DNA of 64,000 bases from Minisyncoccota bacterium (GCA_043771685.1 JAYVGX010000034.1:11690-75689); one strand, 5' to 3'. Counted from the stretch's first letter, positions 34,810 to 48,048 are shown. Numbers and translations: made by a program. Notes: a model not told the origin generated them from the sequence alone.

Positions 34810-35790
34810 CTACTTTAACATCTGAGTTACGAGCGCAGTCATTTGGTCTTTTTTGTTTGGATTACTTTCAGCGATGAGCAATGTAAGCGCGGTCAAGCTG
34901 GCAGGGTTAATATTGCGAGATTTTTTAGCACGGGCTTTACGTAAAAACCAAATAAATGAAAAAGCTCCGGAACGCTTGTTCCCGTCTACATACGGATGAT
35001 TTTTGACCATAAAATAAAGTAAGTGTGATGCCTTTTCTTCGATACTTGGATACACATCTTTACCACCAAATGATTGCATAACATTACCTACGATACCTTC
35101 GACGCTTCCAGTATTTCTTTCTTGTGCAAAGATATCGGTAGCTTCATCTTTTCTCAAAAGTTCATTTCGAAAGCTTGAAATAGCTTGGGTTAATTCTTCC
35201 CCATTTAGTTTAACTGATTTTTTAGTTGTACCGATACTTTCTAAATTGTCGTGGTCATATGCATCCAGTGATACCCACGTAGATGAGAATTCTTTCACTA
35301 ATTCTAGTATTGCCTTTGGATCGAGAGTGACGTGTTCAGGTAGTAGATTCTGAATATCGCCTACTGCTTTCATAAAAGAATCATAATTCTTTCCAATCTG
35401 CTTGCGGTTTATTGTGTAGCCTTTGGTGATATGTTCTTTCAATGTTTTAGTAGCCCAGATGCGAAACTGAGTACCTATTACAGAGTTAATCCTATATCCA
35501 GTAGCGATAATCAAGTCTAAATTATATAATTTTACAGTTCTTTTGATTTCTCTTGAGCCCTCAATTTGAACTTGTAAGGATTCCTTACAAGTTGCTTTAC
35601 TACTTAATTCTCCATCCTTATAAATATTATTAATATGCAAAGTTATGTTTTGCGGAGTAACATCAAACATTTGAGCTATCTGCGCCTGCGTAGCCCAAAG
35701 TGTCTCGTGCGAAAAATCCCCACGGAGCTCGAGTGCCCCATTTTTAGCTTGATAGATTATCAACTCTTTATTTTTTGTAATCTTTTTCAT
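34810..35790 (-). CDS. RhuM-family N-terminal domain fused to a C-terminal Fic/Doc domain.
   Basis: N-terminus LDLIIATGYRINSVIGTQFRIWATKTLKEHI is the RhuM signature. C-terminus NHPYVDGNKRSGAF is the Fic/Doc motif HPFx(D/E)GN(G/K)R. Confidence 0.7.
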   Translation of the reverse strand: MKKITKNKELIIYQAKNGALELRGDFSHETLWATQAQIAQMFDVTPQNITLHINNIYKDGELSSKATCKESLQVQIEGSREIKRTVKLYNLDLIIATGYRINSVIGTQFRIWATKTLKEHITKGYTINRKQIGKNYDSFMKAVGDIQNLLPEHVTLDPKAILELVKEFSSTWVSLDAYDHDNLESIGTTKKSVKLNGEELTQAISSFRNELLRKDEATDIFAQERNTGSVEGIVGNVMQSFGGKDVYPSIEEKASHLLYFMVKNHPYVDGNKRSGAFSFIWFLRKARAKKSRNINPASLTALTLLIAESNPNKKDQMTALVTQMLK

Positions 35791-35891
35791 AAATTTACTT
35801 ATCCCACAGTGAGCATCTTTCCGTGTAGTCAGCTTGCTCTACTACTGCAATTATACCATTTTTGTTATCGTAAATCACTACGGATAATAAA

Positions 35892-36173
35892 CTATTGGTT
35901 AACTTTAACTACGAGTCCTATGCTTGCTAACATATCTGCAACTCTTTCACAACTTTCCTTATCTCCTTCGTAAACTTTAGCGCTACCGAATTGATCTACC
36001 ACATATGCATAATGAGATGCTGTGTCACTTGAACATCCGATAGCACACATTAGTTGTTCTATCACATCATCAAAAGTATGACAATTACAATTAAAAAGAA
36101 TCACATTCCAGATCAATTCTGGTTTTATCGAGGTTATTGTTTTTAGATTAATTTTAGTTATCGTTTCAGACAT
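35892..36173 (-). CDS. clpS: ClpS-like Clp-protease adaptor, 4 nt downstream of hsdR.
   Basis: IWNVILFNCNCHTFDDVIEQLMCA...ASHYAYVVDQFGSAKVYEGDKESCERVADML aligns to the ClpS core (YKVILLNDDYTPMEFV...AVH..G.A.C.V...E.AE.KV). Confidence 0.55.
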   Translation of the reverse strand: MSETITKINLKTITSIKPELIWNVILFNCNCHTFDDVIEQLMCAIGCSSDTASHYAYVVDQFGSAKVYEGDKESCERVADMLASIGLVVKVNQ

Positions 36174-36176
36174 ACA

Positions 36177-39100
36177 CTATGCGGGTTGAAATTCTCTATA
36201 AACACGGACTGTTTCCATATAAATAGATTCTATTAAGCGTTCTGTCTGCATTACTTCGGTGATTCCTTTTTGAATCAAAAGAAGTCTTACATTCTGACGA
36301 ATACGAGCTTTGATGGTTTCGTTGTTTGTCCAATCAATAGTTAAGTCTCTACGAATACGCTTCGTAAGTTCCTTAACAAAGTCTTTTATATCTATTCCTG
36401 ACTTTTTAAGATCAGGGTCTGTTTGTAAGGTGTCGTAGAAAGTTATCTCTTCAGGTGAAAGTCCGAGCGAATGGCTTTCTTCATCAAGTTTCTTGATTTC
36501 ATCTGCAATCCCAAGGAGTTGTTTAATTACCTCCGCTGAACTAATAATATTATTCTCATACTTCTCAATAACTTTTTTTAGTAAATCAAGCATAGTCTCG
36601 TAACGAGCTTTATTATTTTTTGAACGAGCTTTAATTTCAGTTTCCAGCAATTTTCTTGTTGCGTCTATAGCAAAATTTTTGAATTTTACATTTTTTATTT
36701 CTTCCTCAAATTTTTTATCAAAAATTGATATTTGTTTTGTATTTTTACCTTCACCAAACAAATTAATAACCCCTTCTGCTTGCATAGATTGATCAAGTAA
36801 ATTTCTTATCGCACTCTCAGCCTCTTCAGGGAAAATGGTTCCAGGAATATAACCTATTTTTTTAATATATTCTTTTATCGCTTGGTAGAAAGTAATATTT
36901 GATGAAAATACCAAAGCTTTTTCGTCAGGCATAATTGATGCGTGAAGTTTCGAAATAAGTGAGACAAGTTCAAAATATTTCATTTTTCTATCATCTGATA
37001 AAACAGAATTATTTGAGATAACACATTCACTTGCTTCTTGTAAAAGTAGAGAAAGTTCCTGACCACTTTTTTGTTTATATGAATTAAAATTTAGATTACC
37101 AAAATAACCTTTTATCTTTTCATCAAGTTCTTGTATTTTTTGAACAACATCGTCAACTTGAATAATCGCATTCTGATCAATCTTTCCATCATACATCGAT
37201 AGTGCTTTCTTTAAATTTTCTGCAAGTCCAATATAATCCACGATCAATCCAGCTGGCTTATCTTTATGTACTCTGTTTACACGAGCAATTGCCTGCATGA
37301 GACCATGATTCTTTAATGGTTTATCAAAATACATTGTATGTACGCTTGGTACATCAAAGCCGGTAAGCCACATATCACAAACTATAACAAGACGTAATGA
37401 GTCTTTATTGCTTTTAAATCTCTTTTCAAGATTTTTAGTATTACGTTCTTTTTGCATAGAATCTTTATACTCATCGCTATTTGAAATTACCACAGCACAC
37501 TCTGGGGCATCCTTAATTTTTTGTATTTCTTGATATAAAGATACCGCAATTCTACGACTCATAGTTACAATCATACCCTTGCCTTCAATTGGTCTTTGAT
37601 TAAAATGCTGTACAATATCTTTTGCAATTTGTTCAATGCGACTCTGCGTACCAACAACTTTTTCAAGAACAGTCCATTCTTTTTGAATTTTTGTTTTTTC
37701 CTCTATAACAATATCACCAAGAAGTTCATCAAATAATGAATTTATGTCTTCTTTTGCAATACCGAGTGGTACGAGTCGTGCTTCATAAATAATATCGACG
37801 GTAGCACCATCTTTAACTGCTTCACTTAATTTATATTCACTAACAATATTACCGAAGACTCGCTGTGTATTCTGACCATCTTCTTTCGCAACAGGTGTAC
37901 CAGTAACAGCCAAGAAACTTGCTTGGGGTAATGCTTTTCGTACGTTTCCAGCAAGTCCGCTATATTGTGTACGGTGAGCTTCGTCAGCAAGAACAATAAT
38001 ATTTTCTCTTTGTGAGAAATAACTAAATTCTTCTTTATAGTCTTGAAATTTTTGAATTGTTGAAAAAATAAGCCTACTAATTCCATTATCAAGTTGCTTA
38101 ATCTGGTCACGTAAATCAAGAATACTTCCTGCTCGATGAGATACATCCTTGTACCCAACTCGTGCGAAAAGTTTTGAAAGCTGGTCATCAAGGTCTTCAC
38201 GATCAGTCAAAAATAGATATGCAGGACTTTTAAGTTCCTCAATGTTCTTAGTCTTATTCACATAGAAAACCATAGAGAGTGATTTGCCAGATCCTTGTGT
38301 GTGCCAAAAAACCCCAATCTTATGATCTTGTTCTCCACGCACTGCACGGAGTGTACTTTCAACCGTTGTATTTACTCCATAGTACTGATGGTACAAACAC
38401 ATCTTTTTTGTAAATGTTACCGCTTCACCATCTCCATCTGCTTCAAAAACAAAGAAGTTTTGCAAAACATCCAACAGTCGTGTTCGATCAAATAATCCTT
38501 TAGCTAGTACTTCTAGTTGATTAGTATTCTTTGGTGCGTCAGTAGGGGTTGTAATACCTTTCCATGTTCCATATCTTTCCCATGAAGATGAAATGGTTCC
38601 GTGTCGCGCGTTAATAAGATCGGAAAGACCGATAACTTGATTATATAAAAATAGTTTTGGTATTTCTTTCTTATATCTTTCTACTTGTCTGTATGCTTCA
38701 CCAATTGTAGCTCCACCGTGTACAGCGCTCTTTAATTCAAAAAGACCGATAGGTAATCCATTAATGAAAACAACTACATCAAGACGACAAGTAGAATCTA
38801 TTCCCTGAACTGTAAACTGTCTTACGGCTAAAAACTCATTTGAATCTGGATTATTAAAATCAACAAGTTTTACTAGGTCAGTTTTTTCTTCTTCGTTTCC
38901 ACGCCAAGAAGTTTTCTTGCCATTCACAAGCCATGAGTAAAATTCTTTATTACCAAGCATTAGATCATTGTGATGATAATCTGCAATATCTTTTACCACC
39001 ATTTCTGCTTGCTCTGCAGGAAGTGATGGGTTGATTCTACGAATAGCACCAAGGAGTCTGTCTTTCAAAACAACACCTCGAAAATCCTCACGCTCTGCAC

Positions 39101-39209
39101 GAGGTTGCCCAGGATTTATGTCTGGGCCATATACATACTCATAACCCTGACCTTGTAGCCATTCGATGAGAGATTGTTCTGTTAAGTTGTTTTCGTTTAG
39201 TGTGTTCAT
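36177..39209 (-). CDS. hsdR: Type I restriction enzyme R subunit.
   Basis: 1010 aa. N-terminal nuclease domain, SF2 helicase motifs (TQGSGKSL; DEAHRTQYS), and a type I R C-terminal domain. Confidence 0.9.
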   Translation of the reverse strand: MNTLNENNLTEQSLIEWLQGQGYEYVYGPDINPGQPRAEREDFRGVVLKDRLLGAIRRINPSLPAEQAEMVVKDIADYHHNDLMLGNKEFYSWLVNGKKTSWRGNEEEKTDLVKLVDFNNPDSNEFLAVRQFTVQGIDSTCRLDVVVFINGLPIGLFELKSAVHGGATIGEAYRQVERYKKEIPKLFLYNQVIGLSDLINARHGTISSSWERYGTWKGITTPTDAPKNTNQLEVLAKGLFDRTRLLDVLQNFFVFEADGDGEAVTFTKKMCLYHQYYGVNTTVESTLRAVRGEQDHKIGVFWHTQGSGKSLSMVFYVNKTKNIEELKSPAYLFLTDREDLDDQLSKLFARVGYKDVSHRAGSILDLRDQIKQLDNGISRLIFSTIQKFQDYKEEFSYFSQRENIIVLADEAHRTQYSGLAGNVRKALPQASFLAVTGTPVAKEDGQNTQRVFGNIVSEYKLSEAVKDGATVDIIYEARLVPLGIAKEDINSLFDELLGDIVIEEKTKIQKEWTVLEKVVGTQSRIEQIAKDIVQHFNQRPIEGKGMIVTMSRRIAVSLYQEIQKIKDAPECAVVISNSDEYKDSMQKERNTKNLEKRFKSNKDSLRLVIVCDMWLTGFDVPSVHTMYFDKPLKNHGLMQAIARVNRVHKDKPAGLIVDYIGLAENLKKALSMYDGKIDQNAIIQVDDVVQKIQELDEKIKGYFGNLNFNSYKQKSGQELSLLLQEASECVISNNSVLSDDRKMKYFELVSLISKLHASIMPDEKALVFSSNITFYQAIKEYIKKIGYIPGTIFPEEAESAIRNLLDQSMQAEGVINLFGEGKNTKQISIFDKKFEEEIKNVKFKNFAIDATRKLLETEIKARSKNNKARYETMLDLLKKVIEKYENNIISSAEVIKQLLGIADEIKKLDEESHSLGLSPEEITFYDTLQTDPDLKKSGIDIKDFVKELTKRIRRDLTIDWTNNETIKARIRQNVRLLLIQKGITEVMQTERLIESIYMETVRVYREFQPA

Positions 39210-39213
39210 AAAT

Positions 39214-39789
39214 TTATTTTCCAGTTCCGCTTCTTATCGTTTCAATTATTTGAGTTGTTGGCACAGGACTATTCCCGTTTTTAAGATACCCAGTTTCCTG
39301 AACATCAAACATTGTTCTTGTAACCTGTAATAAGATTGCATTCTTTGTCTCTGCGTCATTATCAGATTCCGTACCTCTTACAGAGTCTAAAATTCTTTGA
39401 TGGGAATTAAGAATCAATTGTCTATGTTTATTTATATAATACATGTTCATTTCAGCAGAATAATTTCTAGAGAAGTGGGCGACCAAGTAACCTCCCGCAG
39501 AAATGATCACTAATTTTAATAAAACATTTTGTTCTAAAATTGTATTCCAAATTCTTTGAAAGAAAGTTCCATCACCATCTATGGATAACTGTTTCCCAAA
39601 AACGAATATACAAGCCATAAGGGCTGTAAAAATAAGTGAGCTAAACATTCCTAGTGAATTCTTATCAGCCTTCTGTTTATTACCCAAAAAAGAGTATTTT
39701 TTGAAACTGAATATTTTCCATCTAAATAAATTAAACCCTTCTTCTGTGAATTCACCCTCAGCCATTCTTTCAAATTCTCTACCGTACAA
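39214..39789 (-). CDS. Hypothetical two-TM protein, likely the C-terminal portion of a frameshifted larger gene.
   Basis: TM hairpin LGMFSSLIFTALMACIFVFG ... LLKLVIISAGGYLVAHF. The frame stays open upstream to 39881 without a start codon. Confidence 0.4.
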   Translation of the reverse strand: MYGREFERMAEGEFTEEGFNLFRWKIFSFKKYSFLGNKQKADKNSLGMFSSLIFTALMACIFVFGKQLSIDGDGTFFQRIWNTILEQNVLLKLVIISAGGYLVAHFSRNYSAEMNMYYINKHRQLILNSHQRILDSVRGTESDNDAETKNAILLQVTRTMFDVQETGYLKNGNSPVPTTQIIETIRSGTGK

Positions 39790-39881
39790 TCTAACTTCTT
39801 GACCTTCTGCGATTGTTCCACTAACTTCTACTGACTTCTGAACTTTTTTAGTTAATTCATTTACAGTTTTAAGATTGTCCT

Positions 39882-40286
39882 CTAATTCTTTAGATTTTTT
39901 TCTAAATCTTTTTGTCTAACATCGTTTGCTGGATCTGCAAATTGTAAATAAGTTAAAATTGGATTTAATTGAGATATAATAGATTCTTCCTTTTGTCTTA
40001 CGAAAGCTAATTTTGATTCTCTTTGATTTACATCACTGTAACTATCAATAATTTGTGAATTAAGTTCAGAGATTAGGTTAGTCAAAACATTCTCAAAAGT
40101 TCTCTCATAATTAGGAATCTGTTCTAGTGTTAGTTTATAGCTAAAAATTCTATCGATGATAGTTTTTATTCTTTGTAAATTAGGTTCAATGCTTGTTAAC
40201 TCACCAGCTTCTCCAAGGTTATTTCTAAGAAGTTTTTGCCAATCCAAGTTCTTGTATTTTTCTATGATTTCTTGATTTATTGCCAT
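39882..40286 (-). CDS. Hypothetical helical protein of 134 aa, likely the N-terminal portion of the same frameshifted gene.
   Basis: Ends ...QKDLEKNLKN* just after an A7 tract. An A8 tract would read through as ...QKDLEKKSKELEDNLKTVNELTKK... into the 39214-39789 frame. Confidence 0.4.
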   Translation of the reverse strand: MAINQEIIEKYKNLDWQKLLRNNLGEAGELTSIEPNLQRIKTIIDRIFSYKLTLEQIPNYERTFENVLTNLISELNSQIIDSYSDVNQRESKLAFVRQKEESIISQLNPILTYLQFADPANDVRQKDLEKNLKN

Positions 40287-40291
40287 AAAAT

Positions 40292-41527
40292 TTAAATTAA
40301 TTTTGCTAATAATTGATCTCTCGACTGTTTAAGATTTTTAGATTCATTTTGTATAACATTCATCATTTGAAAAAGAGGTTTTATTTTTTTAATAAATTCA
40401 CCAAAAATTTCTTTTTCAGGAACAGTAATTTTTATATTCTTGATTGTTTTTGAATTAACGGCTGTTGCAATCGATGAAGTACTTCCTAATGAATCATAGT
40501 TATAACTTTTCATTATAAGGTATAGATATTCTGTAGATATAAACGAGCCATCTCTAATCTTGAGATGAGCGATTGCTTCATTTGATAACATTTCTTCTGT
40601 CGTAATAGCAACCTTACCCATAGTCAACTTAAAACTAACAACTAATGTCCCCTTAGGGATTATGGGGATATTAAATTTATTAACCGCTTCTCGGGTCAGA
40701 CATTCATCGGTATGTGATATAAAAATACCTCCAACTCCGAGATCTCTAATAGAGATCCATTTTATATCTTTAGGATTTTTTGAAAACCATTCTTGTTCCT
40801 GCCTTGGAGGAGTTCTTCCAATTGAAATATCACATATATTATCAAGACTATCAATTGTCCATCCCTCAGGAATTTCTCCCATCTCGCTCTCAATCATTTT
40901 CACTTTTTCATATCCAGGAAATTTGAAATTCACAAACCATTCATTAAAAATAGTCTGAGCAGTAAGTTCGAGATTTTTAATTATTATATTATTATTTTCA
41001 ATCTTTGAATCATATGCATTTAAGATTGAAGCAATTTTTTCCTGAGTCTCAAAATCTGGAATATAGAATGTATAATCTCGCAACTGACCTAAGGATACAT
41101 TTTTTATTGTGCTACCGTTAGCATTACTGTCTATGTGTTTTTGAAATCTCTGATCTAGTAAAACATAATACATATAATCTAAAACAAACTCCCTCTTCAC
41201 ATTAATATAACAAGCACTTTTACCAAGAATACATTTTTCACCTCTATATTTTGCCAAATTACCGATTGTCCCATTAATTGATAGCAAGAGCGTTTCTGTG
41301 CCTAAATCTTTTTTATGTTTTAGGTACTCTGACTCGCTAATTCTTTTGGTTTCTTTCTTAATTGAAATGTGCCCATTGTCCAAATTATTACCATTAATAA
41401 AATAGAATTCACCATTATCCTCATATTGAGGAGTTCCGTGCAACCCATCTCCAATTCTAATTGCAATATCAGCTAATGTAACTTCTTTTCTTTTAGTCTT
41501 ATTTATTTGTTCTAATAATTTACTCAT
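40292..41527 (-). CDS. hsdS: Type I restriction-modification specificity subunit.
   Basis: Two target-recognition domains, each followed by conserved helical repeats (...LGQLRDYTFYIPDFETQEKIASILN...; C-terminal ...LKQSRDQLLAKLI). Confidence 0.85.
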   Translation of the reverse strand: MSKLLEQINKTKRKEVTLADIAIRIGDGLHGTPQYEDNGEFYFINGNNLDNGHISIKKETKRISESEYLKHKKDLGTETLLLSINGTIGNLAKYRGEKCILGKSACYINVKREFVLDYMYYVLLDQRFQKHIDSNANGSTIKNVSLGQLRDYTFYIPDFETQEKIASILNAYDSKIENNNIIIKNLELTAQTIFNEWFVNFKFPGYEKVKMIESEMGEIPEGWTIDSLDNICDISIGRTPPRQEQEWFSKNPKDIKWISIRDLGVGGIFISHTDECLTREAVNKFNIPIIPKGTLVVSFKLTMGKVAITTEEMLSNEAIAHLKIRDGSFISTEYLYLIMKSYNYDSLGSTSSIATAVNSKTIKNIKITVPEKEIFGEFIKKIKPLFQMMNVIQNESKNLKQSRDQLLAKLI

Positions 41528-41531
41528 ATAT

Positions 41532-42428
41532 TTATTCTTTAAATTTCATCCTAATATCCCTATCCAAAGGCAGTTGTTTTAAAAATGTCAGTATTTCTTG
41601 TTGTGTCGGTTTTTTGACATTAGTAACAAAATAATCTTTTTGGAAAATCGGCTTTCCCTTCACTGCACACTCGTCTACTAGAGATTCAATAAACTCTGCG
41701 GGAACAGCGTCAAATGACAAGAGGGCGGTGATAAGCACATATTCATGAAATGCTTCAGCATCTTCAATTTCAACTTTTATGCGTGTAGAAATTGCTCTCA
41801 GCGTCTTGATAAATGAGATTGCTGATTGTTTTTTAAAATTAAAATTCTTTTCAAATACGCATACGATAAAAAAGCGCATTTTGTTATTTTTTCCTCCTGA
41901 GGAGCTACCAATTAATGATTCACTTTCCCAGAGTTGATCCTCAACCATATCTACAACACCAGCTTTCTCATTCCAAACAAAGTTTCTATCATCTGAAATA
42001 GTATCCCTGATAATTCCAAATGTACTTTCTTTTTGTATTCCACATTCCTTAATAACAAAGGTATGCATTCGTATAAGTGTTTGAATAGTCATATCCGCCT
42101 GTTTTCGAGCAAATCTTTTTGATTCTTCATCTTGTAACTCAATCTCACCAGCAGAAACGACATATCCAAACTTGTCGCGATTTTCAGCATGATCAAGAAG
42201 TTGTAGTATCGGTTCGTCATCTAAAAATTGTTTTCGATTTTTCTTTATATACTCAAATGTAAAAGGATTTATTTCTGCTTCAACCACGAGAAAAACTCGA
42301 CTAATACTATCGTCTAAAATTCTCGTTTCTTCAGATAAACGAACTTGCGAATACGGACCGTCCTCACCCCACATTTTTTTGTAATCTGTTTGTGTGAGCT
42401 TTTTCTGTTGTTTGTTATCGTTTTTCAT
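41532..42428 (-). CDS. Hypothetical cytoplasmic protein of 298 aa embedded between rhuM and hsdS.
   Basis: Clean ORF tightly packed in the hsd operon (4-nt and 2-nt gaps). No family recognised. Confidence 0.4.
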   Translation of the reverse strand: MKNDNKQQKKLTQTDYKKMWGEDGPYSQVRLSEETRILDDSISRVFLVVEAEINPFTFEYIKKNRKQFLDDEPILQLLDHAENRDKFGYVVSAGEIELQDEESKRFARKQADMTIQTLIRMHTFVIKECGIQKESTFGIIRDTISDDRNFVWNEKAGVVDMVEDQLWESESLIGSSSGGKNNKMRFFIVCVFEKNFNFKKQSAISFIKTLRAISTRIKVEIEDAEAFHEYVLITALLSFDAVPAEFIESLVDECAVKGKPIFQKDYFVTNVKKPTQQEILTFLKQLPLDRDIRMKFKE

Positions 42429-42429
42429 A

Positions 42430-43551
42430 TTATTTTTTATTTTTTTGAACTGTCAACTTTTTGTTGATACTTGATTTTTCCAAAAGTTTTTTTACTTCTT
42501 TGTCAAAATCAGAAATATGTTTTTTATCTTGCTCTACTCGATATTTTTCGTATTCTTGTAATGCTAGTGCTTCCGCCACTTCGTGACTAATTTTTCCATT
42601 ATCTTGTAATATTTGTTCCTCATTAAATTTCAAAAATGAATCGAGTTTTTTCACCCAATCTTTCATTTTCATGAGTATCCCTTTCTTTGCCTGTATTTCT
42701 GCATAGTCCAAATACATAGTCACAATTCTATTAAGAAAATCTAGTTCTTTTTCTTGTAAGTAATTTTTTGCTATAATTACATCATTTTCACGAATAAGAC
42801 CATTTGGTGAATTCTTCCAACTCATCAAGCCAATATTTTCTTTTTTACTACTAACTCTACTATAAACAATCTCTGCAGCGGTTTGACCCGTAATTGCAAA
42901 GTGTAATTTATTTTGTACGGTAGCAAAAAACAGTTTCGTTATTTTATTAGTAGGATCATAGTCTGCACTACATTGTGAATAAATATCAGTAACTTTCTGA
43001 TACATACGCCTTTCACTTGATCGAATGTTTCTTATTCTCGCAAGTTGTTCTTCAAAATAATCAATACCGAAAATAGTATCAGTATTTTTAAGTCTCTCAT
43101 CGTCCATAGTAAAACCTTTGATAATGTATTCTTTTAATCTTTCTGTGGCCCAAATTCTAAATTGTGTTGCTTGTGAACTGTTTACACGATACCCAACTGA
43201 TAGGATAGCGTCTAAATTATAAAATTTTACAAACTGATTTTGTGTTTTTCCTACAATAGCTCCATGGATAGTGGTATGTTCCAAAATGGAACTAACCAGT
43301 TTTTCGTCTAATTCTCCACTTTCGAAAATATTCTTTAAGTGTTTAGTGATTGCTGGTCTTTGTACTCCAAAAAGGAGAGCTATTTTTTCTTGTGTCAGCC
43401 AGATATTTTCATCACGCAAAAATATATCTACTTTTACCTTTCCATTTGGTGTGGTGTAGAGCAGAAACTCTGTAAAACTATTATTTGGTACAATTTTTGT
43501 AATCTTTTTTTTCATATAATTAAAATCCAAGTTCTTTAAGATTTTTCTCAA
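42430..43551 (-). CDS. rhuM: RhuM-family protein.
   Basis: NLDAILSVGYRVNSSQATQFRIWATERLKEYIIKGF. It overlaps the hsdM 3' end by 32 nt. Confidence 0.75.
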   Translation of the reverse strand: MRKILKNLDFNYMKKKITKIVPNNSFTEFLLYTTPNGKVKVDIFLRDENIWLTQEKIALLFGVQRPAITKHLKNIFESGELDEKLVSSILEHTTIHGAIVGKTQNQFVKFYNLDAILSVGYRVNSSQATQFRIWATERLKEYIIKGFTMDDERLKNTDTIFGIDYFEEQLARIRNIRSSERRMYQKVTDIYSQCSADYDPTNKITKLFFATVQNKLHFAITGQTAAEIVYSRVSSKKENIGLMSWKNSPNGLIRENDVIIAKNYLQEKELDFLNRIVTMYLDYAEIQAKKGILMKMKDWVKKLDSFLKFNEEQILQDNGKISHEVAEALALQEYEKYRVEQDKKHISDFDKEVKKLLEKSSINKKLTVQKNKK

Positions 43552-45313
43552 TTTCTTTTTCTAATTCACGACCAACAGTAAAAGCTTCTCGAAGTTCACT
43601 TGAAAGTTTCTGCATTTTTTCTTCAAAAGAAATTCCATCATCTTCTACATCAGTAAGCCCAACATATCTGCCAGGAGTAAGAGTGTATCCGTTCTTTTTT
43701 ATTTCTTCTAGGTTGGCAGATTTACAGAAGCCTGAAATATCTTCATATTTCCCAGCCCCTGATTCTCCACGCCATGCACGGACTGTATCTGTAATTTTTG
43801 CAATCTGTTCTTTACTAAAGATAACTTGCTTGCGAGAAATCTGTTCAAATGTATCTCGTGCATCAATGAATAATGTTTCTCCCTTGCGTTTGCGAAAACG
43901 GTCACCATTTTTATTTTTAGATAAGAACCATAGAGACACGGGTAGTCCAACATTATAGAAAAGTTTGGATGGACAAGAGATGATGACATCTACCATATCA
44001 GCTTCAATAAGCTTTTGACGAATTTCTCCTTCTTTACCTGATACAGCAAGTGCTCCATTGGGCATAACGAATCCTGCCTGACCATTAGGTGAAAGGTGGT
44101 GAGCGAAGTGTTGTACCCAAAGAAAGTTTGCATTACCTGATGGAGGTGTTCCTAAAAATATTCTTGGATCATTGTCAGAAAGTTTTAATGGTTCCCATTC
44201 TGCGTTAAAGGGAGGGTTCGCAATTACGAAATCTGCCTGTAGGTGTGGGAACTTATCTTGATAGTAAGTATTACCAAGTTCAATCTTTCCAGAGAGTCCA
44301 CGAATAGCTAGGTTCATCTTGCAAAGGCGAAGTGTAGTTTGGTTGCTTTCTTGTCCACTAATAGCAAGTTTTGATGGATCCATTTTATGGTCTCGCAAAT
44401 ACTCACCCATAGATACAAACATTCCTCCACTGCCACAAGCAAAGTCTGCCACACGAGCATTTTCGTAAGGTTGAAGTATTTCAACAAGTAATTTAACGAT
44501 TGATCTTGGTGTAAAAAACTCGCCTCCACGCTTTCCCTCTGATGAAGCAAATTGACCTAGGAAGTATTCATAGATTCTTCCAAGAATATCTTTCTCCCGA
44601 TCAAAGTCATGATCAAAAGATATTTGTGAAAAAATATTAACAAGTTCACCAAGAACGGTATGATCAAGATTTACTTTTGTGTATACACGAGGTAGGACAT
44701 TTTCAAGTTGTACAGGATTATCTTTCTCAATCAACTCCATTGCGGTATCCAAAACCTTTCCGAGATCAGGACTCATGGTTTTTGTTTGCAAAAATTCCCA
44801 ACGAGATTTTTCTGGAACATAGAATACCCCTTCAGCTGTATAAAAATCTTTTGTTTCAAGAATAGACTTCCGAGCTTCTTCTGTTGGGACATAGAAGTCT
44901 TCATCCTTCGGGTCTTTAGTTTTTAAAGTTAGAACTTCACGCTGTTTATAAAATGAGTCTGATATATATTTCAAAAATAAAAGTCCAAGTACAATATTTT
45001 TATACTCGGACACGTCAACATTACCTCGTAATTTATCTGCCGCCATCCAAAGCTCTTTTTCAAAGCTGAGGTCGTGGTGTTGGTTTTTATCTAAAACTTT
45101 CTTTGTGACGCTCTTTTGCTGTTCACTAATACGATTCTGTATTTCTTCTGAGAGCGAAGCCTTTGGGATTAAGTAAGTTGGTTTAGAGGGGTCTCCTATA
45201 TTTTCAGCTGTAATTTCACCCTTTTTGATCTTTTGATGAACGGCTATACGGCTAATACCCAACATCTTTGCGAGTTGTGTAGGGGTTACAAATTGTGATT
45301 TATCGATTGACAT
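43520..45313 (-). CDS. hsdM: Type I restriction-modification N6-adenine methyltransferase subunit with an N-terminal HTH.
   Basis: HsdM N-domain, SAM-binding DFACGSGGMF, and catalytic FVIANPPFN. Confidence 0.9.
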   Translation of the reverse strand: MSIDKSQFVTPTQLAKMLGISRIAVHQKIKKGEITAENIGDPSKPTYLIPKASLSEEIQNRISEQQKSVTKKVLDKNQHHDLSFEKELWMAADKLRGNVDVSEYKNIVLGLLFLKYISDSFYKQREVLTLKTKDPKDEDFYVPTEEARKSILETKDFYTAEGVFYVPEKSRWEFLQTKTMSPDLGKVLDTAMELIEKDNPVQLENVLPRVYTKVNLDHTVLGELVNIFSQISFDHDFDREKDILGRIYEYFLGQFASSEGKRGGEFFTPRSIVKLLVEILQPYENARVADFACGSGGMFVSMGEYLRDHKMDPSKLAISGQESNQTTLRLCKMNLAIRGLSGKIELGNTYYQDKFPHLQADFVIANPPFNAEWEPLKLSDNDPRIFLGTPPSGNANFLWVQHFAHHLSPNGQAGFVMPNGALAVSGKEGEIRQKLIEADMVDVIISCPSKLFYNVGLPVSLWFLSKNKNGDRFRKRKGETLFIDARDTFEQISRKQVIFSKEQIAKITDTVRAWRGESGAGKYEDISGFCKSANLEEIKKNGYTLTPGRYVGLTDVEDDGISFEEKMQKLSSELREAFTVGRELEKEIEKNLKELGF

Positions 45314-45359
45314 GTGTTAAGTATAGCATAATATCTCGAATAATGCAACTTAACACATG
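45311..45359. promoter_or_regulatory. 12-bp perfect inverted repeat (CATGTGTTAAGT..25 nt..ACTTAACACATG) spanning the hsdM start codon and 5' leader.
   Basis: Direct reading. The left arm includes the hsdM ATG (minus-strand sense). Confidence 0.3.
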
Positions 45360-45373
45360 TAAAGTTACCAATT

Positions 45374-45862
45374 CTATTCTAAATAAGAGTCGAAGTATAT
45401 GGCGTGACAGGTGTATCCACCGGGGTTATTTACTAGGTAGTCTTGATGGTAGTCTTCGGCTTTGTAGAAAGTGCCGAGTTGCTCGAGAGTGGTCACCACT
45501 TTATCATTCCAGCGTTTTGAATTGTTTACAATATTTATAAAATCCTCCCCTTCCTTTTTCTCTTCCTCGTTCCCATAAAATATCGCAGAGCGATATGAAG
45601 TACCCTTGTCATTGCCTTGTTGATTTAAAGTTGTCGGATTATGAATCTGAAAGAAAAAGTCCAAAAGATTTTTATATGATGTTTTTGTCGGATCATATTC
45701 TATCTCTACTGCTTCGGCATGACCGGGATGATTCTCATAACTTGGGTTATTATTTTCCCCTCCAGTGTAACCGACTTCGGTATTTACTACTCCTGGTTGT
45801 TTACGAATCAAATCCTCCAGCCCCCAGAAACATCCACCTGCGAGTATTATTTTTTTATTCAT
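45374..45862 (-). CDS. msrA: Peptide methionine sulfoxide reductase MsrA.
   Basis: [11 protein letters not shown] active-site motif. Confidence 0.9.
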
Positions 45863-46220
45863 CTGATTTACCTGAAATAAACTTCATCGATATTGAATTC
45901 ACACAATGACGAATATTCTTTTCTGTTAATCCTTCACCAGTGAACAAATGACCTAAATGTCCACCGCATTTTTTACAAGTTATTTCTGTACGCATACCAT
46001 CCTTGTCTACACTTTTATGAACTGCTCCGGTTATCTCATCATCGAAACTAGGCCAGCCACAAGTAGACTCGAATTTACTATGAGAATCATATAATGGGGC
46101 ATCACACTGTCTACAGACATATACGCCATTTTCTTTATTGTTTACGTATTCTCCTGTGAATCGAGCTTCTGTGCCTTTATCTAAAATAATTCTTTTTTCT
46201 TCTGCTGTTAGTTCGTTCAT
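45855..46220 (-). CDS. msrB: Peptide methionine-R-sulfoxide reductase MsrB.
   Basis: CxxC zinc motifs (CRQCDAPL; [12 protein letters not shown]) and the catalytic GWPSF region. Confidence 0.9.
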
Positions 46221-46245: not shown

Positions 46246-48048
46246 TTATTTAAATAAATAGAGATATTTTTCATATCCTTCTTTTGTCATTTCTTCTTTG
46301 GGGATAAATTTAAGTGAAGCTGAATTCGTGCAGAATCGACGTCCACCCTCCTCTTTGGGACCATCTAAAAATAGATGTCCGACGTGACCTGCGTCACTAC
46401 GTATCTCTGTGCGAGTAGTCGAGAGTGAATTGTCCTCGTGCATCGTCACAGAATCGTCATCTATAGTTTTCCAAAAGCTCGGCCAACCTGTACCTGAGTC
46501 GTACTTGTGTGTACTAGAAAATAGTGGTTTGCCTGTGACTTTATCAACATAGATTCCATGGGCTTTGTTGTCCCAGTATGCATTCTTGAACGGTGATTCT
46601 GTGCCCCCTTCGGCTACAATATGGTATGCCAATGGGTCCAAATTTTTTAGCATCTCTGCTATCTCTTCATGAGTGTAATCGTAATCGCCTCTCTTTTGTG
46701 TAGTGCTCTTTACAGCACTTTTTGTCTGTTCAGATTGTAGAAACTTTATCGCAGCGTCTTTCGCCCATGTCTCTTCTATAAATCCGGCTCGGCCTGAACC
46801 CTTCTTGTATCGCTCATAATGATCAGATGATTTCTTGTAATAATCTTGGTGATATTCTTCTGCTTTAAAGAACGTAGTGAATGGAAGTATCTCGGTTGCG
46901 ATAGGTTTATCGAACACACCACTTTTACCCAAGCGAATCTTAGCATCTTTGGCAATTATTCCTTGGTCTTCATTCTGGTAGAAAATAGCACTCGTGTATT
47001 GGAATCCGTTATCAGCAAACTGGCCCTTTGTATTGGTCGGATCTATATGAGACCAATAAATGTCCAAGATCTTCTCTGTTGAAATGATACTCGGATCGTA
47101 GGTCACCTGCACGGCTTCACGATGCGAAGTTGTACCCTTTACAACCTTTAGATACGATGCACTCATCTCATCTCCACCTGCATATCCAGAGACTGCATCT
47201 ATGACTCCATTTTCTTCTTGGAAGAATGCTTCTGTACACCAGAAGCAACCACCTGCAAGGGTGATAGTTTCTAATTCTTTGTTTGAAGCAGTACTTTCTT
47301 CTGGAGAATTATTTTTAGGAGCGAAACGCTCTATCAATTTATCTTCTAGCTTGATTGTCGCTCCATAACCAGAGTCTAGGATCAGAGTTTCTATCTTCTT
47401 GTCATATCCAGTAAGGACTGCCAGACCGACGAGGATAATGAGTACCCCAAATATTTTCTTTATTGTGCTTGTTGTTTGCATGTGTGTAGTCACCTTGTTT
47501 ATAATCTTCTGACCAAAATATGCGATCAGGAGAAGTGAAACTGCTAATCCTAAAGTAAATCCGACGAGATACAGTAGTCCTGTAGTAAGTGTAGCAGGTA
47601 GAACAGTAGCAATGATAAATAGATAAGTTGGAGAACAAGTAGTAAAGACTGGACCTAATGCAAGTCCGATGAGCATGTCCCCTTTGTAACTTTTATTTTG
47701 GTAACCTTCTCCAACGATTTTATTACTTGCAATACTTAGTTTGTTTACATATGGTATTCGTGCCCAAAGAGATGGAAATACAATAGCCGTACCAACAAGG
47801 ATGATCACTAGTCCTGAAAAGCTAGTCCAGAAAGATGGAGGGATGTCTATGAATAAGGTTGTCGCTTTTAAAAGTAATGTAAATAGTATGACAGAAAATG
47901 AAAGTGAACCTATAACAACAAATGATCTTTTTGAAATTCCTTTTGATCCAACTTCAGATGCACCTATAACTACAGGGAGTAACGGCAATATACACGGTGC
48001 AAGCACTGTAAATATTCCCGCTAAAATCGATATCAAAAAGAAAATCAT
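46246..48048 (-). CDS. Membrane-anchored triple fusion: CcdA/DsbD-like thiol-disulfide transporter TM domain, then MsrA, then MsrB.
   Basis: N-terminus LAPCILPLLPVVIG (CcdA Cys-containing TM), followed by ITLAGGCFWCTEAFF (MsrA), then C-terminal ...GTGWPSF...RSDAGHVGHLF (MsrB). Confidence 0.8.
   Translation of the reverse strand: MIFFLISILAGIFTVLAPCILPLLPVVIGASEVGSKGISKRSFVVIGSLSFSVILFTLLLKATTLFIDIPPSFWTSFSGLVIILVGTAIVFPSLWARIPYVNKLSIASNKIVGEGYQNKSYKGDMLIGLALGPVFTTCSPTYLFIIATVLPATLTTGLLYLVGFTLGLAVSLLLIAYFGQKIINKVTTHMQTTSTIKKIFGVLIILVGLAVLTGYDKKIETLILDSGYGATIKLEDKLIERFAPKNNSPEESTASNKELETITLAGGCFWCTEAFFQEENGVIDAVSGYAGGDEMSASYLKVVKGTTSHREAVQVTYDPSIISTEKILDIYWSHIDPTNTKGQFADNGFQYTSAIFYQNEDQGIIAKDAKIRLGKSGVFDKPIATEILPFTTFFKAEEYHQDYYKKSSDHYERYKKGSGRAGFIEETWAKDAAIKFLQSEQTKSAVKSTTQKRGDYDYTHEEIAEMLKNLDPLAYHIVAEGGTESPFKNAYWDNKAHGIYVDKVTGKPLFSSTHKYDSGTGWPSFWKTIDDDSVTMHEDNSLSTTRTEIRSDAGHVGHLFLDGPKEEGGRRFCTNSASLKFIPKEEMTKEGYEKYLYLFK

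Follow-up and report, generated by a model that had tools for sequence, protein, structure and literature searches.

Gene content and layout of the locus

The 64,000-nucleotide (nt) stretch of Minisyncoccota bacterium DNA analysed here (GCA_043771685.1, JAYVGX010000034.1:11690-75689), hereafter the window, contains between positions 34810 and 45313 a type I restriction-modification (RM) operon whose hsdM, hsdS and hsdR genes are interleaved with other genes. All coordinates are window positions, and family calls were made by hidden Markov model (HMM) searches (Pfam, PADLOC, NCBIfam). Based on an open reading frame (ORF) scan and these searches, all long ORFs of the region lie on the minus strand and make up eight genes in the order hsdM, RhuM, a gene for a protein of 298 amino acids (aa), hsdS, a gene for a protein with two transmembrane (TM) segments that is broken at a run of seven adenines (A7), hsdR, a ClpS-like gene and RhuM_N-Doc. 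The finding is a gene arrangement and not a statistical signal, and a chance test is thus inapplicable. The features are the following:

45307-45363, minus strand: inverted repeat and promoter; 16-nt arms ACTTTACATGTGTTAAGT ... ACTTAACACATGTCAA, 25 nt apart
43520-45313, minus strand: hsdM, 597 aa; HTH_17, then HsdM_N (PF12161) and N6_Mtase (PF02384, E=4.8e-102)
42430-43515, minus strand: RhuM, 361 aa from the probable ATG start at 43515; the longest ORF extends to a TTG at 43551
41532-42428, minus strand: 298-aa gene; two-domain protein without a family match
40292-41527, minus strand: hsdS, 411 aa; two target-recognition domains (TRDs)
39214-40286, minus strand: two-TM gene in the hsdS-hsdR slot, split into ORF134 and ORF191; intact product 357 aa
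39882-40286, minus strand: ORF134, N-terminal piece of the two-TM gene, without an HMM match
39895-39901, minus strand: A7 tract, cause of the frameshift
39214-39789, minus strand: ORF191, C-terminal piece of the two-TM gene, without an HMM match
36177-39209, minus strand: hsdR, 1010 aa; HSDR_N nuclease, SWI2/SNF2 motor, T1RH-like C-terminal domain
35892-36173, minus strand: ClpS-like gene, 93 aa, 3 nt past hsdR; PF02617, E=1.6e-11
34810-35790, minus strand: RhuM_N-Fic/Doc (RhuM_N-Doc), 326 aa; RhuM N-terminal domain fused to a Fic/Doc domain

The intergenic gaps along the operon are 4, 1, 4, 5, 4 and 3 nt, followed by 101 nt ahead of RhuM_N-Doc. Because of this spacer, RhuM_N-Doc is probably a separate transcription unit, and the spacer suggests that it has its own promoter. 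A first-pass annotation, made from the sequence alone, had described the region as a type I island with five extra genes, all on the minus strand and tightly packed. The HMM searches confirmed the gene order and complete hsdM, hsdS and hsdR genes, and the strand holds for all eight ORFs, whereas the tight packing holds for the first seven only, whose neighbours are 1-5 nt apart. The ClpS-like gene, which had been placed 4 nt after hsdR, follows it by 3 nt. The proposed overlap between hsdM and RhuM amounts to 32 nt if the TTG start of the longest ORF is used, but the ATG at 43515, 4 nt past the hsdM stop, is the more likely start, since public gene calls use it and the PADLOC models align to the longest RhuM ORF only from residue ~22 onward.

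The type I RM system looks intact, because the catalytic motifs of HsdM and HsdR are readable in their translations. HsdM carries the FACGSGGMF and NPPF (ANPPFN) motifs of an N6-adenine methyltransferase. HsdS matches PF01420 in two stretches, as expected for two TRDs, and PADLOC Specificity_I over its full length (E=1.9e-83). HsdR matches TIGR00348 over its full length (E=8e-176, 586 bits vs a cut-off of 284.55), together with HSDR_N, SWI2_SNF2 and T1RH-like_C, and its D...ELK, GSGKS and DEAH motifs complete the picture of a nuclease, a superfamily 2 motor and a C-terminal assembly domain. As a separate observation, a 25-nt near-repeat, 88% identical, is shared by hsdR (38331-38355) and hsdM (43763-43787), where it encodes the common peptide (T)(L/V)RA(V/W)RGE; it may be due to chance.

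The inverted repeat upstream of the operon brackets a sigma70-like promoter, TTGCAT-17-TATACT, and the hsdM ATG lies inside its right arm. As this ATG is only about 7-9 nt past the -10 element, the hsdM mRNA is probably leaderless. The same geometry of inverted repeat and promoter is conserved upstream of orthologous HTH-HsdM genes (L007, L051 and L055; L-numbers denote the contigs and loci compared), and we regard the repeat as a putative operator for the HTH_17 domain of HsdM. Taken together, the conserved geometry in orthologous operons and the N-terminal HTH_17 of HsdM suggest that the operon may be autoregulated by HsdM itself.

The two-TM family in the hsdS-hsdR slot

Our strongest result concerns the genomic surroundings of the two-TM family. 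After removal of duplicates, 24 non-redundant loci were available, of which 15 place the gene inside a type I operon, 3 have long flanks and lie outside such operons, and 6 are too short to tell. The gene stands directly between hsdS and hsdR in L007, L008/9, L049-L053, L055-L057 and L060-L062, usually with gaps of 3-6 nt and sometimes trailed by an extra gene (DUF3800, HTH-M78); counted without redundancy, the family holds this slot in 10 loci besides the window. A divergent branch (~36% identity) is found between hsdM and hsdS instead (L064, L065, L067-L070).

The intact protein consists of a helical/coiled-coil N-terminal part, two hydrophobic TM segments at residues 210-236 and 255-273 (hydropathy), and, past the second of these, a conserved cytoplasmic C-module with the pattern GGYLVAHFSRNYSAEMNMYY.NKHRQ..LNSHQRIL ... 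TGYLK. Its AlphaFold2 (AF2) model consists of helices throughout and includes two TM segments. No Pfam match was obtained at E<=10, and none among the 5,027 PADLOC models.

In a sister strain (97-98% identical flanks; L014, L017, L018, L019), a recombination breakpoint lies in the middle of hsdS, at window position ~40859, and from there onward HsdS has a different second TRD, only 20-33% identical. The slot downstream of this hsdS is occupied by a 430-aa protein with the same architecture of coiled-coil, two TM segments and tail. This protein showed no similarity to the profile of the close two-TM family (BLASTP E=0.53; hhalign 1.7% probability), but against a broad profile built from 97 diverse members of the superfamily it aligned at 86% probability (E=5e-6). 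The superfamily comprises 2,459 relatives at E<=0.001 in a profile search of 1.84 billion representatives, and its distant members give weak matches to DUF6161 (7/97), SLATT_1 (1/97) and also DUF2207_C, the best E being about 1e-5. The cluster names of distant relatives gave no further clue. In L001, the same slot holds a 167-aa protein with one TM segment; it was considered as a further member and rejected as unrelated (hhalign 0.5% probability).

Two side observations concern these relatives. The sister-strain contig L014 ends in a reverse-strand Bax1-I gene after the slot gene. On a Vibrio tubiashii plasmid (L078, NZ_CP117031.1, 185621-202337), a distant two-TM relative annotated as hypothetical forms a solitary cassette within an array of one gene per cassette, with Hhe, an HEPN-associated protein, a GIY-YIG nuclease and AbiH; the array resembles integron-type defence cassettes. 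A phage or plasmid origin of the two-TM, 298-aa and ClpS-like families was considered and rejected: none of the three was found among the IMG/VR viral contigs or the PLSDB plasmids.

The frameshift at A7 had been recognised in the first-pass annotation, and it was borne out: one A added to the tract joins ORF134 and ORF191 into a single 357-aa frame. Contig L012, which over 20.9 kb matches the window save for 1 mismatch and 1 gap, carries A8 and an intact 357-aa gene. Based on this contig and on full-length homologues of 352-362 aa, with up to 89% identity over 100% of the length, we read the two pieces as one 357-aa gene, which is switched off in the window. The tract is A7 in L013, L015 and L016 as well, so that four of the five same-strain assemblies are broken. 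The strain is thus genuinely polymorphic at this tract, and either slipped-strand ON/OFF switching or a recent inactivation could account for the difference. With A7 and A8, a coding homopolymer varies in length within one clone, as in contingency genes.

It is also possible, although we give this somewhat less than even credence, that A7 is no switch but the sign of a pseudogene in decay or, with lower probability, of a homopolymer error in assembly. The preponderance of A7 among the same-strain assemblies fits decay, eight A would be a short tract for a contingency gene, and the tract is interrupted (A7G, A6) in L049, L007 and L053. Nevertheless, both halves of the reading frame are otherwise undamaged, and A8 occurs both on the nearly identical background of L012 and in the 89%-identical orthologue L050. 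As for an assembly artefact, this is unlikely because A7 was reproduced across different samples and assemblers. A programmed -1 frameshift was considered and rejected: the A_AAA_AAU heptamer at A7 is slippery and a slip there would give the intact protein, but the downstream 95 nt fold no better than shuffled sequences (z=-0.5), and this lack of RNA structure behind the A-run also speaks for a pseudogene.

The tight placement of the two-TM gene between hsdS and hsdR, with gaps of 4-5 nt and probable translational coupling, raises the alternative that its product is a structural fourth subunit, tethering the restriction complex to the cytoplasmic membrane, e.g., at DNA-entry sites in DNA-scavenging episymbionts. 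Long coiled-coils in the cytoplasm are a typical scaffold feature, and the cytoplasmic C-module is strongly conserved. We consider such a subunit improbable, however, given that the gene is dispensable, being frameshifted in most same-strain assemblies and absent from the related operons L001/L024, and that homologues without RM neighbours exist (L058, L059, L073).

The ClpS-like, 298-aa and RhuM proteins and the surroundings of the operon

The ClpS-like protein belongs to the ClpS fold by its PF02617 match (44.2 bits vs a cut-off of 23), whereas it reaches only 25-26 bits against the NCBIfam ClpS equivalog models, with cut-offs of 117-160. When aligned with E. coli ClpS, it has ILFNCNCHTFD in place of ILVNDDYTPME, and this stretch is invariant in 21 homologues. 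We take Asp35, Asp36 and His66 of E. coli ClpS to be its N-degron pocket residues; the matching residues here are Cys, Asn and Asp, so that the pocket is not preserved. Two further cysteines are conserved in the family, and where ClpS has its N-degron pocket there is a cluster of Cys and His residues that is possibly a metal site.

Only 27 homologue clusters of this protein were found. In four of the five other distinct contexts, the homologues lie behind restriction-enzyme genes. In L076, a MutH-like type II endonuclease gene precedes the homologue by 2 nt; in L077 and L023, the preceding enzyme gene is a type III Res, separated from the homologue by one or two small ORFs; and in L021/L022, it is DpnI. 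The small ORFs near the ClpS-like genes share no common family, except that a short FtsK_gamma-like match links L023 with L077. In a further case (L079, 5948-7210), the homologue comes right after the gene of an NfeD/Peptidase_S49 (ClpP-class) protease, and an Eco57I-like gene lies 2.5 kb upstream; this protease neighbour hints at a link between the family and proteolysis. In the literature searched, we found no description of a recurrent placement of ClpS-like genes downstream of diverse restriction endonucleases.

Is this simply an ordinary ClpS adaptor for N-degron proteolysis that stands beside hsdR by chance? Its PF02617 match is significant, and some homologues carry the name ClpS at NCBI. 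Nevertheless, the scores far below the equivalog cut-offs, the Cys, Asn and Asp at the pocket positions within an invariant NCNCH motif, and the few clusters with their repeated position directly downstream of restriction-enzyme genes make this explanation very improbable.

The 298-aa protein gave no match in Pfam, PADLOC, NCBIfam or PDB sequences even at E<=10; with the two-TM protein, it is presumably one of the two occupants for which the first-pass annotation saw no recognisable family, and neither has a Pfam or PADLOC match. Its 114 homologues are all unnamed or from Patescibacteria. The AF2 model (pLDDT, the predicted confidence score, 82) has two confident domains with a disordered linker between them. 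The N-domain (about residues 10-130) is strongly conserved and the more conserved half. The C-domain (about residues 180-290) has a fold like that of the IS200/IS605 transposase TnpA. In the profile alignment, however, the H-I-H of 2f4f and 2vhg stands opposite y-v-l, with no conserved His, and the catalytic Tyr of 2f4f (KKYIEEQ) stands opposite the near-invariant Phe282; thus, both the HUH motif and the catalytic Tyr are missing, and the alignment identifies the C-domain as a catalytically dead TnpA-like domain.

Elsewhere (P0107-P0114), the N-domain occurs alone, fused to PRiA4_ORF3 (PF07929), or with a helical module of ~100 aa on either side that bears a DAWNYFPH motif; by these combinations, it behaves as an independent mobile domain.

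Across 185,579 species genomes, the 298-aa family has 25 loci; this patchy distribution, together with the neighbours listed next, is unlike that of a housekeeping gene. Homologues lie inside type I operons (L024, L025, L037, L039), beside NYN (L024, L032, L047), Bro-N (L026, L028) and Fic (L005, L039, L043) genes, and 13-16 nt after a PemK toxin gene with no other antitoxin candidate (L003, L027, L034). In these pairs of a 155-aa PemK and a 298-aa homologue (L003 7518-8858; L027 357-1687; L034 9518-10423), there is no conventional antitoxin upstream on the same strand, and for this reason the family may act as PemK antitoxin. Judged by its neighbours, the family is associated with defence and toxin-antitoxin (TA) islands and is not RM-specific. 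A role in nucleic-acid sensing or as a toxin partner is plausible, if weakly supported.

RhuM matches PF13310 (E=1.4e-106, 355.8 bits) and, over its full length, PADLOC PDC-S05 (E=1.9e-139). An A8 tract also lies directly after its probable start (43505-43512, ATG AAA AAA AAG) and is non-polymorphic among the same-strain contigs examined. The RhuM-Fic/Doc fusion named in the first-pass annotation was upheld by PADLOC PDC-S23 (E=5e-110 over residues 6-326) and PF02661 (E=1.6e-9). Its active-site motif, HPYVDGNKR, is the Doc (kinase)-type Fic variant, with Lys replacing Gly. Both proteins are already represented among the PADLOC candidate families. RhuM-like and DOC proteins, and their fusion, were described in RM operons in 2013 and proposed to be toxins (PMC3710099).

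The same gene arrangement is present in at least five independent assemblies, with exact and near-exact copies in several metagenome assemblies. Named homologues of the proteins without a family belong to Patescibacteria (Parcubacteria, Candidatus Taylorbacteria, Paceibacterota), and the host genome is that of a Parcubacteria/Taylorbacteria-like member of the Patescibacteria, an uncultured, ultra-small bacterium. Housekeeping genes flank the island, msrA/msrB upstream and an APH-type (APH-like) kinase with a glycosyltransferase downstream. No tRNA gene is near the borders (the tRNAs of the window are at 6.6-7.9 kb only), and neither flanking direct repeats around the island nor a GC anomaly across it was found; nothing at the borders points to a recent integrative element. 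A promoter and terminator scan of the region was not used, since its sites were no commoner than in shuffled sequences. Just upstream of the operon, a gene (46246-48048) whose 600-aa product fuses a DsbD-type membrane domain to MsrA and MsrB domains stands beside separate msrB (45855-46220) and msrA (45374-45862) genes, giving three methionine-sulfoxide-reductase genes in a row.

Proposed mechanism and comparison with known systems

Our favoured reading, to which we give slightly better than even chances, is that an intact, probably self-regulated type I RM operon serves as a scaffold for layered defence with coupled accessory effectors. RM would be the first line of defence. The 357-aa two-TM protein would be an RM-coupled membrane effector, a role that we favour because its slot is that occupied by PrrC in EcoprrI (PMC12707154). 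Its cytoplasmic coiled-coil would contact the RM complex and keep the protein inactive, and a phage that disables or overloads restriction would allow it to disturb the membrane, resulting in abortive infection. In the window, the gene is OFF by the loss of one base from A8, and the existence of the same strain with A8 points to a phase-variation-like switch or to a costly effector that was recently selected against. RhuM and RhuM_N-Doc, the latter with its kinase-type Fic motif, would act as toxin-type second-line effectors. For the ClpS-fold protein, our preferred guess is a restriction-enzyme-associated regulator or adaptor through which proteolysis would set how much restriction subunit is present, as a form of restriction alleviation; it would work through a remodelled pocket, which possibly binds metal, instead of the N-degron pocket. 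The dead TnpA-like domain of the 298-aa protein might bind single-stranded or hairpin nucleic acid, and the protein could be a sensor or a neutralising partner of neighbouring toxins (PemK, NYN, RhuM/Bro-N).

Several points weigh against this scheme. Each of its functional steps is read from position and fold. The well-flanked two-TM homologues L058, L059 and L073 are outside RM loci, and many related type I operons have no two-TM gene, indicating that coupling to RM is not obligatory. With the gene broken in most same-strain assemblies, decay fits as well as switching, and the A8 tract is interrupted in several orthologues. The varied types of restriction enzyme beside ClpS-like genes argue against one specific protein-protein interaction, and the 298-aa family is next to housekeeping-like genes in some loci.

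The alternative that bears on the scheme as a whole is a passive hotspot, in which the accessory genes would be independent selfish or stand-alone cassettes (TA-like genes or single-gene defences) in a permissive co-transcribed site, uncoupled from restriction. The first-pass annotation had proposed a synteny comparison for co-varying insertions; across orthologous operons, the slot contents proved to be modular and did not co-vary, as a hotspot would predict. The occupants include NYN, PIN_12, Bro-N+DUF2130, DUF3800, HTH-M78, TIR, PemK and HNH. Members of the 298-aa family and some two-TM homologues are found away from RM loci as well, and the distant two-TM relative on the Vibrio plasmid is a solitary cassette. 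Additionally, most embedded systems act independently according to Payne et al. (10.1101/2024.01.29.577857). On the other side, the two-TM family keeps its type I association across about 36-90% sequence divergence and in two slots, a distant member of its superfamily refills the same slot in the sister strain, and ClpS-like genes track the restriction-enzyme genes of four RM types. We consider a purely passive hotspot unlikely, although it is a serious competitor to the coupled scheme.

The embedded genes of the related Patescibacteria type I operons (L001/L024, L025, L037, L053, L055, L060) deserve a record of their own. They are many and differ from those of the window, with NYN, PIN_12, DUF3800, TIR, PemK, Bro-N+DUF2130, an HTH-M78 peptidase with DUF4411, and HNH. 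Small proteins of 165, 167, 151 and 144 aa without a family are also present, and the 165-aa protein twice trails a 298-aa homologue.

The first-pass annotation had further proposed candidate defence or abortive-infection genes for the non-hsd slots, and every comparative test that we ran is consistent with this. Their turning out to be housekeeping genes or members of non-defence families would have spoken against it; instead, 15 of the 24 two-TM loci are type I operons, the 298-aa family is patchy, and no well-characterised non-defence family was matched by the two-TM, 298-aa or ClpS-like protein. The arrangement was also presented as non-canonical. The five extra genes are real, but the novelty was overstated: RhuM and RhuM-DOC genes in RM operons have been known since 2013 (PMC3710099), and embedding has been catalogued at scale under the term 'guilt by embedding' (Payne et al. 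2024, bioRxiv 10.1101/2024.01.29.577857). TgvAB, for instance, is embedded in a Vibrio cholerae type I RM operon (PMC11411939). Thus, embedded defence genes in type I loci (PrrC, RloC, TgvAB) are already known, as are RhuM and RhuM-Doc as candidates. What is new here is the two-TM, ClpS-like and 298-aa families, whose genomic associations are consistent, in a phylum with a poorly mapped defence repertoire.

We also considered a joint proposal with three parts: that the two-TM family is an exchangeable type I RM module, a PrrC-like membrane-killing guard switched by a homopolymer; that the remodelled ClpS-fold protein is a general companion of type I, II, III and IIM endonucleases, linking restriction control to proteolysis; and that the 298-aa family is a defence-island protein built on an exapted dead IS200/IS605 domain. 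That all three hold together seems doubtful to us.

Candidate Phyla Radiation (CPR) bacteria have tiny genomes and are under heavy phage pressure. A recent aquifer survey (PMC12259885) notes that some CPR defence systems may escape the detection tools now in use, and the locus supplies three concrete candidates for such systems. If the two-TM protein were indeed coupled to RM, it would be a second, mechanistically different case of the PrrC principle of guarding the restriction enzyme. If the ClpS-like protein were to act on restriction enzymes, restriction control would be tied to a dedicated adaptor across RM types; such proteolytic control is so far known only as the ClpXP-dependent alleviation of E. 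coli. The dead-TnpA protein would be one more transposase exapted into conflict systems. The value of the locus is raised by an RM-embedded two-TM family with strain-level cassette exchange and homopolymer polymorphism, and by the ClpS-like family; should none of the proposals hold, it would still be a clean example of the embedded-defence-gene pattern in an under-sampled phylum.

Among known systems, PrrC and RloC are the closest in position. The two-TM gene occupies the same slot (hsdS -> X -> hsdR), and in both cases an accessory family is associated with type I loci; in the proposed logic only, the two would also share a latent suicide effector that is freed when restriction is inhibited. 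In contrast, the two-TM protein has no ABC-ATPase or HEPN domain and no detectable similarity to PrrC or RloC, and it is proposed to act on the membrane, whereas they act on tRNA. With the SLATT and DUF6161 proteins it shares its architecture, in which a conserved cytoplasmic helical module comes after two TM helices, and a defence-locus context. It differs from them in that the window protein and its close relatives match neither family even at E<=10, in its long N-terminal coiled-coil, and in its family's association with type I RM instead of nucleotide-signalling or reverse-transcriptase systems.

The ClpS-like protein is a member of the ClpS fold family by Pfam, but its N-degron-binding residues are replaced by a Cys/His-rich motif. 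Its gene adjoins the restriction subunit that Clp proteolysis controls in E. coli, where ClpXP-dependent degradation of HsdR is known (PMC4231737); however, E. coli uses ClpX and not ClpS, and the ClpS-like association spans type I, II, III and DpnI-type enzymes. Compared with IS200/IS605 TnpA (Y1 HUH) and the REP-associated tyrosine transposases, the 298-aa protein is without the HUH motif and the catalytic Tyr, its gene has neither TnpB nor transposon ends, and its TnpA-like domain is fused to an unrelated conserved N-domain.

Lastly, the locus resembles TgvAB and the guilt-by-embedding candidates (PADLOC PDC/HEC) in having defence genes inside a type I RM operon. It differs from them in its two-TM, 298-aa and ClpS-like proteins, which match 0/5,027 PADLOC models. 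The catalogues are RefSeq-built, and the three families appear to be confined to uncultured Patescibacteria-type genomes. RhuM (PDC-S05) and RhuM-Fic (PDC-S23), by comparison, are direct full-length members of the catalogued candidates.

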